Shown here: in pieces, positions 12,560 to 16,310 of the stretch
Numbering within the stretch: the first letter of the stretch is position 1
Layout: every line of letters starts with the position of its first letter
Program-made: the position numbers and the translations under genes
DNA from: a virus
Lineage: Duplodnaviria; Caudoviricetes
DNA length: 30,820 nucleotides
Direction: 5' to 3' (one strand)
Virus record (IMG/VR): IMGVR_UViG_3300017989_004169
Coordinates: 1 to 30,820 of that record
Notes under the pieces: model-generated
Seen by the model: only the letters and a program-made list of their open reading frames with translations
The model's database searches: none
Told to the model about the DNA's origin: nothing

Positions 12560-12595
12560 CATGAATTTATAAAATATGTATGCAAAGCTATACTT

Positions 12596-12603
12596 TGTAT
12601 AAT
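12596..12603 (+). promoter_or_regulatory. TGTATAAT promoter-like motif, 6 nt before the SF2 helicase ATG
   Basis: Exact motif, back-to-back with the minus-strand copy. Confidence 0.65.
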
Positions 12604-12609
12604 AATCTT

Positions 12610-13986
12610 ATGAAAGCTATTGTAACAAATAAAACAATCACTATTTTGGATGCTACTCCAAAATATGAACAATATATTACAGATATTTTATCTTTTGTTG
12701 ATAAATCTAAGCAGTACCAGTTACGGCGCATGGAGAAAAACCCATGGCAAAAGAATTCACCACATTATCACAAGATAAAAGCAGAGTCCACAGGTTGCCT
12801 AGTAGTTAAGCAAGATAATAAAATTATTATACCCTCAGGATTTGCATATACATTAAATAATGATATGGATATTGAAGATCTCAGATCTTCAACCGGTGAT
12901 AAAATTGCCCTCCCTTGGAAAAAGAAGCCATTTGATTTACGTCCTTATCAACAAGAAGCTGTAGAGCTAATGGATAGTGAATATCGTGGATTAATTAATA
13001 TGGCAACAGGCCTTGGTAAAACACTCACAGCCATCCATGCTATTAGAAAAATAAAGCGAAAAACGCTTATCGTATGTCCTGGTAAATCTATTGCAGATCA
13101 ATTCTATTTACAGCTATGTGAAGCATTTGGAAGTCATCGTATAGGTTATATGGGCGGTGGAAAAAAGCAGCTCAAGGATATCACAGTTGGTATAGTGGGA
13201 ACCATCAATAATAACATCGATACGGTCTCCAAACATGGTCTAGGATTGGTTATATTTGATGAGACGCATCATATTAGTGCTGATACATTCTTCTCGATAG
13301 CGGAGAATCTGGGAGACATAGGGAAGATGTTTGGATTGACTGCTACAGACTTTCGTTCTGATGGTAAAGATGTCATGATTACTGCCGGTGTTGGCCCTGT
13401 TGTAATCAAAAAAGATGTGGTTTGGGGAGTTCAAAATGGCTGGCTTGCGGAACCACATTTCTTTATCCGTAATATTTACTCTGGACAACGTGAATTTCCT
13501 GGTGACAAGCTCAAGAATTACAAATCTCATATTTTGAATTGTGAAGTCACCAAAAAGCAAATTGAGAATGATTGTCGTAATTTTATAAATATGGGCAAAT
13601 CAGTATTGTGTTTGGTATCAGAAGTTGCTCATGGCGAAGAATTATCTCAGGCACTTGGGGTCCCCTTTGCAACTGGCAAAGATAAGAAATCCGCCTCATA
13701 TATTGACGAGCTAAATAGTGGTAAAACGCTTGGGCTTATTGGTACAGATAGCTTTATAGGCGAAGGCACAGACACGAAACAGGTGGATGTCTTGATATTG
13801 GCTAATTTTGTTGCGAGCAAAGGGCCAGTGATTCAATGCCTCGGGCGGGGATTACGCAAGACGAATACAAAAAGTAAAGTGATTATATTAGATTATAAAA
13901 TTGCTAATTCTAAGATGTTGGCTCGTCATTGCGATAATCGTGTTAAAATATATAAAACGATTAATTCTAATATTACTATGATATAG
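12610..13986 (+). CDS. Superfamily 2 DNA helicase (UvsW/Rad25-like, 458 aa)
   Basis: Q-motif LRPYQ, motif I MATGLGKT, II IFDETHH, III GLTAT and VI QCLGRGLR. The start at 12610 is preferred over 12580 because the latter lies upstream of the promoter motif. Confidence 0.9.
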   Translation: MKAIVTNKTITILDATPKYEQYITDILSFVDKSKQYQLRRMEKNPWQKNSPHYHKIKAESTGCLVVKQDNKIIIPSGFAYTLNNDMDIEDLRSSTGDKIALPWKKKPFDLRPYQQEAVELMDSEYRGLINMATGLGKTLTAIHAIRKIKRKTLIVCPGKSIADQFYLQLCEAFGSHRIGYMGGGKKQLKDITVGIVGTINNNIDTVSKHGLGLVIFDETHHISADTFFSIAENLGDIGKMFGLTATDFRSDGKDVMITAGVGPVVIKKDVVWGVQNGWLAEPHFFIRNIYSGQREFPGDKLKNYKSHILNCEVTKKQIENDCRNFINMGKSVLCLVSEVAHGEELSQALGVPFATGKDKKSASYIDELNSGKTLGLIGTDSFIGEGTDTKQVDVLILANFVASKGPVIQCLGRGLRKTNTKSKVIILDYKIANSKMLARHCDNRVKIYKTINSNITMI

Positions 13987-13993
13987 GTGATAT

Positions 13994-14893
13994 ATGTTAA
14001 CAGAACATTTCAAGGCTAGTGAACTTCAGTGTAGTTGCTGTGGTCAGCTTGTAATTGACAGACAGCTTGTTTACGGACTTGAAGTCCTAAGGCGGCTTTT
14101 AGGAAAACCAATCATTATTACTTCTGCATATCGATGTATGGCACATAATGCAGCAGTTGGTGGAGTTCCTAATAGTCAACATGTATTAGGTAAAGCTGCT
14201 GATATTCAAGTACCTGGATTAACCCCAGATGAAGTACACAAAGTTGCAAAATGGTTGTTTACAGGGTTGGGATTATATGATAATTTTTTACATGTTGATG
14301 TACGCGAAGGCAAAAGAGCTTTTTGGTCAAATATATCATATAATAGAAAATTCACCGATGATGATTTATATGATAGTCATAAATTATACAATCAAGGCTT
14401 AAGTTTTCGTGAAATTGGTACTATCTTAGGATACGATGCCTCTAATATTAGATATCACTTTGATAAAAATAAGTTGCCACGTAGAAGCCAGAAAGATGGT
14501 ATTGCCTTATCCGAAAGTAAAAGAGATAAAACTGGTAGTAATAACCCAAATTGGAAAGGTGGCAAATCAAAGTTACAATTAAAACAGCAAATGGCTCAAT
14601 ATGCAGGCGGTAAATGTAAAGATTGTGGCCTCATTTATACAGTAGAAAATTCACCAGTATTTGAATTTCATCATTTAAACCCATTGATAAAAAGTTTCAA
14701 TATTTGCAACGAATTACAACTACATGATATCGATGTAATTAAAAGTGAAATAGATAAATGTAATTTATTATGTGCTAATTGTCACAGATTACGTCATTAC
14801 AATTCAAACAATATATCATCCGAAGATGTTCTACCAGAAGGACCATCAGATCAGGATATAGAGAACAAACTCAAAGAGGCTGAAGATGAGTAA
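13994..14893 (+). CDS. Peptidase M15-family endolysin-like protein fused in frame to an HTH-HNH endonuclease module (299 aa)
   Basis: Residues 1-112: HF...E..CSCCG, ITSAYRC..HN..VGG..NSQH..GKAADI and FLHVDVR (M15 zinc ligands). Then HTH (GLSFREIGTILG), GSNNPNWKGG and HNH (CKDC...FHHLNP...LLCANCHRLRH), followed by an acidic tail. Confidence 0.85.
   Translation: MLTEHFKASELQCSCCGQLVIDRQLVYGLEVLRRLLGKPIIITSAYRCMAHNAAVGGVPNSQHVLGKAADIQVPGLTPDEVHKVAKWLFTGLGLYDNFLHVDVREGKRAFWSNISYNRKFTDDDLYDSHKLYNQGLSFREIGTILGYDASNIRYHFDKNKLPRRSQKDGIALSESKRDKTGSNNPNWKGGKSKLQLKQQMAQYAGGKCKDCGLIYTVENSPVFEFHHLNPLIKSFNICNELQLHDIDVIKSEIDKCNLLCANCHRLRHYNSNNISSEDVLPEGPSDQDIENKLKEAEDE
14330..14819 (+). mobile_element. Putative in-frame HNH homing-endonuclease insertion (480 bp plus 10-bp direct repeat)
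   Basis: AATATATCAT at 14330-14339 and 14810-14819, exactly 480 bp apart and in the same codon phase (N-I-S), bracketing the HTH-HNH module. Confidence 0.65.
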
Positions 14894-15143
14894 ACATACT
14901 GTTCAATTACCCGATGGGTTTGAAATCGATTTAGATAATGTCACAGTTACAGATACCATAACCACAGATAACACCGCTGTACCACCACTTTGGGATACTA
15001 CCACTACCGATGGTATATATGAACCATTTTCACCTTATAATCACACCTATAGCTATCAAGAAGAAATTAAAGCCCTCAAAGAAGAAATAAAAGAGCTTAA
15101 GAAAATCATTGAAGAGCATATCTTGCTTGGACATGGTGAGTAA
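14886..15143 (+). CDS. Hypothetical protein (85 aa) with short C-terminal coiled coil
   Basis: Overlaps the upstream stop, has GAGG upstream and EEIKALKEEIKELKKII heptads. Confidence 0.65.
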   Translation: MSKHTVQLPDGFEIDLDNVTVTDTITTDNTAVPPLWDTTTTDGIYEPFSPYNHTYSYQEEIKALKEEIKELKKIIEEHILLGHGE

Positions 15144-15155
15144 TGTAGAGTCGAT

Positions 15156-15297
15156 CTATATACTTTCCTAAAAACTATCTTATCAATTCAAATCTAATCT
15201 AGTTTTGCGCAGCAAAACTATGTGCGGGCTCTTGCCCGCACGCTGCTAGTAAAGTATATAGTATAGAATAGATTAGGGGTGATGGGGAAGTCTTCCC
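15156..15297. other. Structured non-coding element (nested inverted repeats): candidate ncRNA or replication origin
   Basis: Outer stem 15156-15170/15247-15261 (14/15 bp). Hairpins TAGTTTTGC-GCA-GCAAAACTA (15200-15220) and GTGCGGGC-TCTT-GCCCGCAC (15222-15241). Palindrome GGGAAG-T-CTTCCC (15285-15297). No ORF. Confidence 0.6.
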
Positions 15298-15298
15298 T

Positions 15299-15306
15299 AT
15301 TATACA
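15299..15306 (-). promoter_or_regulatory. TGTATAAT promoter-like motif pointing into the structured element
   Basis: ATTATACA on + strand, with no minus-strand ORF downstream. Confidence 0.5.
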
Positions 15307-15364
15307 GCGAAAAGATGAAAATGACTTGCGCTAAGCGTTTTTGCTTTGGTGTACATTATACTTT

Positions 15365-15389
15365 ATGTAATAATTACATCTTGTATAAT
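15365..15389 (+). promoter_or_regulatory. Palindrome ATGTAAT-A-ATTACAT followed by TGTATAAT promoter-like motif upstream of dUTPase
   Basis: Palindrome at 15365-15379, motif at 15382-15389, and a GGAGG RBS before ATG 15413. Confidence 0.6.
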
Positions 15390-15412
15390 TTGTAATAACC
15401 ATCGGAGGAATT

Positions 15413-15895
15413 ATGCAAAAGATGACAACCCAAGAGCAGTTGCAGCAACTGCATGAAGAAAGTTTTGCAATAAAAATAGAAGTTTTATATGACGGGAGAT
15501 TACCCTTTAAGGCCCATAGGACTGATGCTGGCTTTGATGTATTTGCTACTGATGATGTGATTATTCATCCAGGAGAAATTATCAAACACTCTTTGAATAT
15601 AAAAATGCAATTGCCACGTGGTACATATGCAAGTATTGAATCTAAATCTGGACTTGGTGCTCGTGGCTTGTTGGTTTATGCGGGTGTAATTGATCAAGGA
15701 TATCGTGGTGTTCCTCATGTTGTCGCAACCAACCTAAATCATAAAGACCCAAATCCTATTGTTATTAAAAAACATGAGAAAATAGCACAATTCATTGTAT
15801 ATCCTTTTAATTCAGAATATTACATTAAAGAGGTTTATAAGGTAGACGAAAATACAGCAAGATCTGGGGGCGGTTTTGGTTCAACAGGTAAGTGA
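15413..15895 (+). CDS. dut: Trimeric dUTPase (160 aa)
   Basis: Motifs DAGFDV, SKSGL, GVIDQGYRG, KIAQ and RSGGGFGSTG. Confidence 0.93.
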   Translation: MQKMTTQEQLQQLHEESFAIKIEVLYDGRLPFKAHRTDAGFDVFATDDVIIHPGEIIKHSLNIKMQLPRGTYASIESKSGLGARGLLVYAGVIDQGYRGVPHVVATNLNHKDPNPIVIKKHEKIAQFIVYPFNSEYYIKEVYKVDENTARSGGGFGSTGK

Positions 15896-16310
15896 CACAT
15901 ATAGTGACTCTAATGGTGAAGCTTTTCAGAAATTGCAACGAGCTTTTCCTATATGGAATATTATTAACTTTACAATAACACAACAAATGCAATCTGCAGC
16001 AATATATGATACCTTTACTATTGGTCAGGTACCAACATATCAACCATCAGGGGGTGCTACGTTTACACTAGAAATATATAGACAAGTTAAACCAGGTGTT
16101 AACTCTAGTTTAAATCTTCATGGGTTAGCAGATTGTTGGTTAGATTGTGCCATAACTGTAGATGGTGTTAATAATGAGGTATTACGTTATGTATTTACAG
16201 GTTATGGTGAGATTTGGGATTTTATTGAAAAACATCAAGATGAAATATATAAAGAAGTAACTTTACCATATTTAGATAAGCAATTAGATGACATTTTAAC
16301 TAATAAGTGA
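15876..16310 (+). CDS. Hypothetical protein (start uncertain: TTG 15876, TTG 15933 or ATG 15987)
   Basis: Fills the gap between dut and the MTase-like gene, with a GTGA overlap at its 3' end. No recognised motif. Confidence 0.6.
   Translation: MVQQVSDTYSDSNGEAFQKLQRAFPIWNIINFTITQQMQSAAIYDTFTIGQVPTYQPSGGATFTLEIYRQVKPGVNSSLNLHGLADCWLDCAITVDGVNNEVLRYVFTGYGEIWDFIEKHQDEIYKEVTLPYLDKQLDDILTNK

Follow-up and report, generated by a model that had tools for sequence, protein, structure and literature searches.

In-frame insertion of an HTH-HNH nuclease gene into the linker of a predicted phage endolysin

A phage gene of the endolysin type appears to carry a whole nuclease gene within its own reading frame. 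The window analysed here, i.e. the whole stretch of 30,820 nt, is a 30.8-kb virus record with a completeness estimate of 18%, and contains helicase, primase, polymerase, GroEL and tail-fibre genes. The original prediction had described an HNH module lying in frame in an endolysin-like gene, and such an insertion was confirmed by 12 insert-free relatives and by the stand-alone protein P0172; as far as sequence comparison goes, the insertion is established by these insert-free alleles together with the stand-alone homolog. The explanation that we favour, with a probability somewhat above even, is that a complete HTH-HNH gene sits in frame in the endolysin linker, is translated unspliced as a 299-aa fusion and is still homing. 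The element would have arisen once, when illegitimate recombination between short matching sequences placed the gene in the variable linker and replaced the nuclease's own start and stop. Expression would come from the endolysin's signals, and the domains would fold independently, with lysis spared. The fusion would then cut insert-free endolysin loci of co-infecting relatives, and repair would copy it into them along with the M15 domain. Taken by itself, continued homing is likewise slightly more probable than not. The features are listed below by window position.

12580..13986, + strand: SF2 helicase, upstream synteny anchor of the endolysin slot (Pfam, comparison of helicase loci)
13994..14893, + strand: 299-aa fused ORF composed of an M15A-type endolysin domain, the HTH-HNH insert and an acidic tail (Pfam, PHROG; a second fused allele, P0002, is 75% identical over the full length)
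13994..14329, + strand: M15A-type zinc peptidase domain, residues 1-112, with R47, H63, D70 and H100 present (Pfam PF08291, match to PDB 1lbu)
14330..14339, + strand: left copy of the 10-bp repeat, N113-I114-S115 (N-I is also found here in the insert-free P0034)
14339..14818, + strand: stretch matching the whole stand-alone gene P0172, whose Met corresponds to Y116 and whose stop to S275 if the alignment is extended gap-free past the last conserved His
14354..14467, + strand: helix-turn-helix, predicted DNA-binding domain (HTH_38, model, VIA match)
14534..14563, + strand: GSNNPNWKGG motif, also found after NUMOD3-like repeats in another phage nuclease (L051)
14615..14797, + strand: zinc-binding HNH nuclease domain with CxxC (208-211), FHH (225-227) and CxxCHxxxH (260-268) all intact (PHROG 3106 and 2255, BFVD)
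14810..14819, + strand: right copy of the 10-bp repeat, N273-I274-S275 (I-S-S is also found here in the insert-free P0323)
14825..14887, + strand: acidic, conserved tail made up of LP[DE]GP[ST] and a helix predicted at 286-298, common to GH24, amidase and peptidase endolysins of the phage group
15413..15895, + strand: dUTPase, downstream synteny anchor (Pfam, locus comparison)

The ORF is a single stop-free frame of 299 codons. An assembly artefact was rejected, since contig L135 is identical to the window DNA over 6080 nt and each insert junction is bridged without differences by contigs of runs X1, X2, X3 and X4; X1 and X2 are marked as candidate sources of this DNA, X3 and X4 resemble one data set, and these four runs may represent only two samples. 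Contig depth over 14752-16013 is about half that of the neighbours in X1 and X2 (5.9 against 13.1 and 11.2), with a similar fall in X3/X4 and no alternative contig among those listed. The drop may reflect coverage bias or a second strain, contig depth being a weak measure. GenBank phages covering 80% of the fusion were absent from the 832 records compared, and the nearest helicase in that collection is 26% identical. The phage group is therefore without a close isolate in that collection.

The N-terminal part of the ORF matches Peptidase_M15_3 (PF08291) over residues 5-102 (E 1e-20, 74 bits against a cut-off of 23), and its model matches the zinc DD-peptidase 1lbu (Foldseek E 3.6e-5, VIA Z 9.6). 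R47, H63, D70 and H100 are invariant or nearly so among 49 homologs, and their catalytic roles in the window protein are presumed from what is known of the M15 family. Assignment to the M15 type is supported by the fold, the zinc ligands H, D and H and the conserved Arg. The ORF also occupies a lysis-gene position, GH24, amidase and other peptidase genes being located between the same helicase and dUTPase in relatives. The M15 domain is thus classified as a predicted endolysin-type peptidoglycan hydrolase. Two AlphaFold models of the fusion were built from separate alignments (M15-only and HNH-only homologs), each being well supported for one half. In these models, whose overall pTM is low (0.40 and 0.53), the M15 domain, HTH, HNH and C-terminal helix form separate units joined by low-confidence linkers. 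Matches in the ESM Atlas scored 0.76 or less.

For the insert, HTH_38 was matched at residues 121-154 (E 2.5e-5, under the Pfam cut-off), the region was modelled as three helices (pLDDT 83-95), and a structure match to the GcrA DNA-binding domain was returned by VIA (Z 6.5). The NUMOD3 match in L051 is just under the cut-off (E 7e-4), and the window's own GSNNPNWKGG stretch has no Pfam match. Residues 145-278 match PHROG HNH endonucleases (PHROG 3106, E 5e-23), and the HNH part of the model matches viral HNH models in BFVD. The zinc ligands, the FHH motif and the CxxCHxxxH motif do not vary among 25 homologs; this HNH core with its two CxxC motifs places the domain among the zinc-binding HNH endonucleases. 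The Pfam HNH match (E 0.083) is below the cut-off and a McrA match is weak (E 0.1); PDB structure searches were led by the M15 and HTH parts and sampled the HNH domain little.

In an insert profile search, residues 3-158 of the stand-alone homolog P0172 (161 aa, 51% identical, known as a protein sequence only) covered insert positions 6-159. Since this match runs from end to end, the insert would correspond to a complete gene that has lost its own start and stop, and it would have no room for non-coding sequence. The true junctions are uncertain by about three codons, i.e. 14330-14809 or 14339-14809. The 149 nearest stand-alone relatives differ in their DNA-binding modules (judged by eye for 22 with long extensions), as homing endonucleases do. 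Four annotated HNH relatives are intergenic, within a tRNA cluster, or overlapping the end of a polymerase gene, and none of the four is annotated as intronic; none of the family members looked at was identified as a characterised homing endonuclease. In Roseobacter phage CRP-125 (L316), an HNH-like match to P0172 at 2501-2869 runs across the DNA polymerase gene's end and the annotated ORF that follows, and is possibly an overlapping or broken endonuclease gene.

The absence of an in-frame ATG, GTG or TTG before the HTH, claimed from the outset, agrees with the codon table for codons 113 to 160. This stands against the idea that the nuclease is also made alone, through an internal start or proteolysis of a linker, with the fusion as a by-product of overlap. 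A TATAAT hexamer does occur at 14339, where the Met of the stand-alone gene falls, and TATAAT also lies a short distance upstream of several window genes. The linkers are also of low confidence in both models, and internal starts have been proposed for the ShiLan HNH in the available part of its report (PMC11855218). However, TATAAT occurs 33 times on the strand, the copy at 14339 is without the TG found before intergenic ones, and a promoter scan gave 4 sites, fewer than shuffles (8.8). We consider such a second product improbable.

A search among shorter proteins showed the same M15 domain linked to the acidic tail, with no HNH, in P0034, P0035 and P0036. By profile search the tail was found in 14 of the 434 proteins compared, two of them fused and 12 being insert-free M15-tail proteins, so the empty-site alleles sought by the original prediction exist. 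HNH-less homologs that also lacked the tail had been named as evidence against the proposal; the insert-free alleles keep the acidic tail. Three insert-free M15 alleles (L249, L251 and L293) lie in the syntenic slot, downstream of the same helicase. The insert is thus at one site in two alleles and absent in 12, which is the distribution expected of a homing endonuclease. No insert-like ORF was found among the 100 clade-search loci (L214-L313), and none of 34 pattern matches, from a pattern that required a TGT codon, was a real further nuclease-tail fusion.

In the second fused allele, P0002, the insert is found at the corresponding position and none of the predicted catalytic residues has been lost. 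P0002 is identical to the window protein at 85/112 positions of the M15 domain (76%), 123/160 of the insert (77%) and 52/64 of the HNH core. The insert is conserved at the amino-acid level, beyond its mere frame, which suggests that the nuclease sequence is under selection. An open frame alone would not preserve the amino-acid sequence, and the nuclease is therefore likely functional. Idle homing endonucleases decay. Judged from the two alleles, the insertion is old and under selection. The fused M15 domains are sisters with support of 91/84 (23 rows), under the tool's star threshold, and 86/83 (18 rows); a single origin of the two fused alleles is the simplest reading, though not a firmly supported one. 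For the tail of the window protein (P0001) the best match is P0036 (17/21), and for the P0002 tail it is P0322 (17/21), compared with 13/21 between the two fused proteins. This discordance was significant in one of six triplet tests (p 0.004, picked post hoc) and in none of 15 quartet tests, and is a weak sign that exchange took place at the right junction. The junctions are known only as protein sequence for P0002, P0172 and the closest insert-free alleles.

Two fused sister alleles with equal divergence in the M15 domain and the insert also fit one insertion followed by vertical descent without homing. The nuclease might then be a domesticated domain, captured once and serving the phage after homing was lost; the benefit may be the cutting of rival phage or host DNA late in infection, or regulation of the lysis gene by the HTH. 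By analogy, the lone LAGLIDADG domains in phage methylases also seem to be vertically inherited, according to the available part of their report (PMC9957025). On the other hand, the fusion is rare and patchy (two fused alleles, 12 without the insert), genes of other nuclease families are gained and lost around the endolysin gene, and the comparisons gave no positive sign of a benefit to the phage. Domestication is plausible but unlikely on these grounds. Continued homing of the in-frame nuclease is preferred.

The duplication claimed for AATATATCAT was confirmed, the sequence occurring at 14330 and 14810, 480 bp apart and encoding N-I-S each time, and at no other place on either strand of the window. 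The accompanying caution that a 10-bp repeat can arise by chance was justified: an in-frame 10-bp repeat anywhere in the gene was obtained in 45% of 5000 codon shuffles, a comparable one is present in 9 of 16 real blocks of 900 bp taken from other genes of the window, and three other exact 10-mers are repeated in the same region. The position of the copies at the domain boundaries, offered as the real evidence, holds in part. A copy within a 30-90 nt window at each boundary occurred in 0.12-1.3% of 20000 shuffles, with the windows set post hoc, but both copies can also be host linker, as seen in P0322 and P0323. Removal of 160 codons leaves 8 residues from W111 to L280, the same spacing as in 5 of 10 measured insert-free alleles, which fits a duplication; linkers of insert-free alleles range from 4 to 21 residues. 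P0322 and P0323 have 11-residue linkers, and P0323 matches the right copy plus what follows (I-S-S-x-D). Removal of Y116-N272 (157 codons) leaves exactly 11 residues and an empty allele of 142 aa, so both copies may be host sequence. By these linker comparisons, an insert of 157 codons flanked by two host-derived copies is as good a fit as a duplication. The last residues of P0172 resemble the right copy, and such an end would provide illegitimate recombination with a short match. The two copies are D-I-S and D-I-I in P0002, whose right flank is shorter by one residue.

If the repeat were instead a functional target duplication or recombination site, the insert could be moved or excised as DNA. 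The exact repeat at both boundaries, rare by chance, the 8-residue spacing left by the 160-codon removal and the D-I of P0002 where both window copies have N-I are in line with this. However, no transposase or recombinase domain accompanies the direct repeat, and the inverted repeats listed include no terminal pair at the ends of the insert. The repeat is reduced to two residues in P0002, and the linkers of P0322 and P0323 account for both copies as ordinary host sequence. No joint across the insert was present in the contigs of six runs, four of them covering the insert, contigs being prone to drop rare variants; X5 (a small share) and X6 have short pieces only over the locus. Movement as DNA through the repeat is quite improbable in our assessment.

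The claim that neither an intron nor an intein is present was upheld. A group I intron was rejected, as the insert has no ribozyme match, no non-coding room and no terminal G. Rfam gave no intron at E<=5 and two chance-level matches, the RNA fold of the insert is no better than shuffles (z -0.39), and the right boundary is without a G in either register. An intein was rejected as well, since no HINT domain was detected by Pfam or fold, the models showing only M15, HTH and HNH. The H-Y-N-S near the right end of the window insert is similar to an intein end motif, and would favour an undetected RNA- or protein-splicing element that restores a short endolysin. This end motif is absent in P0002, which has H-Y-R-P at the intein-like place, and the insert is of the same length as its stand-alone homolog. 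HNH-bearing endolysin introns are described for staphylococcal phages in the available part of a preprint (bioRxiv 2025.02.06.636829) and may serve as an analogy for splicing; given the negative results above, we hold a splicing element to be highly improbable. A ShiLan-type insertion was also rejected, because the HNH lies in the host frame and the other frames across 13994-14893 contain short ORFs only.

The acidic tail has no Pfam match. A search with a degenerate tail motif gave 20 loci, and 13 of these are endolysin ends adjoining the same helicase. A helicase scan with a single protein returned nothing, and an alignment scan gave 80 helicase loci, from which 69 distinct near-full-length helicases were kept. 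An endolysin was found within the available flank in 53 of the 69 and in none of the other 16. Over the endolysin slot (L216-L232, L234-L312), the tail is present in 35 of the 53 syntenic endolysins and absent in 18, as judged with a profile built from these same tails at a cut-off of E 0.3, a few being marginal. The original prediction had called the C-terminal linker dispensable. This applies to the linker itself, which varies from 4 to 21 residues, but only by half to the tail, which by these comparisons is a conserved module of the phage group, kept in most members and lost in some. With the tail conserved, an insertion in the linker that keeps the frame retains it. By eye, small ORFs at 15876-16310 of the window and at L216:3021-3242, L217:1780-2013 and L237:7710-8144 end in acidic, likely amphipathic helices that are tail-like.

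The catalytic domains of the slot include GH24 lysozymes (44 of 53), M15 peptidases and a PHROG 465 endolysin, with an amidase added by the tail search. Among loci whose helicases are nearest to the window's, the domains are GH24 or PHROG 465 and not M15A, which suggests that catalytic domains have been swapped before a retained tail. An acidic tail shared behind unrelated catalytic domains points to a possibly unstudied lysis module in this phage group. The homing proposal can be extended to a cassette that lives as an endolysin domain, makes a short duplication on landing and co-converts the M15 domain on one side, with the tail as the right-hand crossover; it would thereby swap lysis chemistry (lysozyme, amidase, peptidase) across the group. 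We regard this extended form as unlikely.

Nuclease genes adjoin the endolysin at several other loci. Endonuclease VII-like genes abut or overlap it in L253 (2724-3104), L282 (3352-3828) and L228 (1888-2481), a GIY-YIG gene in L271-273 (L271:2413-2955), HNH genes in L284 (5435-5989) and L270 (2500-3387), and a further free-standing nuclease gene in L230 (2993-3727). They represent at least three families, all of them separate ORFs and of other families than the window insert. These neighbours suggest that the slot is a repeated landing site, and from the gene order the fusion is most simply one such nuclease arrival, inside the gene and in frame. More nuclease-like ORFs were seen near methylase and GroEL genes in L263, L267, L275, L287 and L292.

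Unspliced endonuclease insertions in phage genes are known. No endolysin with an HNH in its own frame turned up in the literature searched, which consisted largely of openly accessible main texts, and the combination appears to be new. Fusions of rps3 with LAGLIDADG in Ophiostomatales reportedly lie near the C-terminus, with a duplicated end. A report on Ophiostomatales mitochondria describes homing-endonuclease coding sequence that continues the frame of a host protein's gene, as in the window, and differs in concerning a fungal organelle and LAGLIDADG (PMC7902536). The available parts of PMC10448857, PMC3943268 and bioRxiv 2025.01.02.630785 hold no in-frame fusion of endolysin and HNH.

It has been reported, in the part of the paper available, that nine phage methylases (mycobacteriophage F-cluster) contain a lone in-frame LAGLIDADG domain, which by prediction folds apart and is seemingly inherited vertically (Gosselin et al. 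2023; PMC9957025). As in the window, the endonuclease domain there is in frame without intein or intron, has its own predicted fold and is carried by one group, and mobility is unproven there as here (PMC9957025). In contrast, the window nuclease is an HNH and its host a cell-wall hydrolase, not a DNA methylase; and whereas the methylases allowed a restriction-modification reading, the window insert has an end-to-end stand-alone homolog (PMC9957025, as far as available). Out-of-frame HNH genes inserted in phage methylases have also been described (Arsenault et al. 2025; PMC11855218). In the available text, the ShiLan domain and the Pacc40 insertion resemble the window case as HNH genes in a phage gene with no host-frame stop and no detectable splicing, and they too have stand-alone homologs beside related genes (PMC11855218). 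However, their HNH has its own start and stop in a frame other than the host's, and homing is supported by its patchy spread (PMC11855218); the window HNH is in the host frame and startless.

The staphylococcal endolysin introns likewise place an HNH gene between endolysin modules, but there the gene is split and spliced or assumed so, in the preprint as available, whereas the window case is one frame without a ribozyme (bioRxiv 2025.02.06.636829). WHO elements of yeasts, from the part of the source available, home without splicing at a gene end, as is predicted here, but they are genes in their own right that take the place of the 3' end of FBA1, and no replacement gene end occurs in the window (bioRxiv 2020.01.20.913210). 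Judged by its sequence features, the window element works like the lone-endonuclease insertions and is not an intron, an intein or a ShiLan-type insertion. It points to a further lifestyle for a selfish nuclease, as a permanent domain in a tolerant linker of a non-DNA enzyme. For a metagenomic case the evidence is unusually complete, combining insert-free alleles, a donor-like stand-alone gene and a second fused allele. The 34-kDa protein makes the question raised by the methylases, whether unspliced endonucleases still home, directly testable.

Two further observations concern the surrounding DNA. Two adjacent strong hairpins at 15200-15241, terminator-like on the minus strand, are intergenic before the dUTPase gene. 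TATAAT with TG just before it lies upstream of genes at 12598, 15384, 17013, 19617, 21788, 24419, 25189 and 29733. The copy at 12598, 6 nt before an ATG, suggests that transcripts are leaderless and that the helicase begins at 12610, not 12580.
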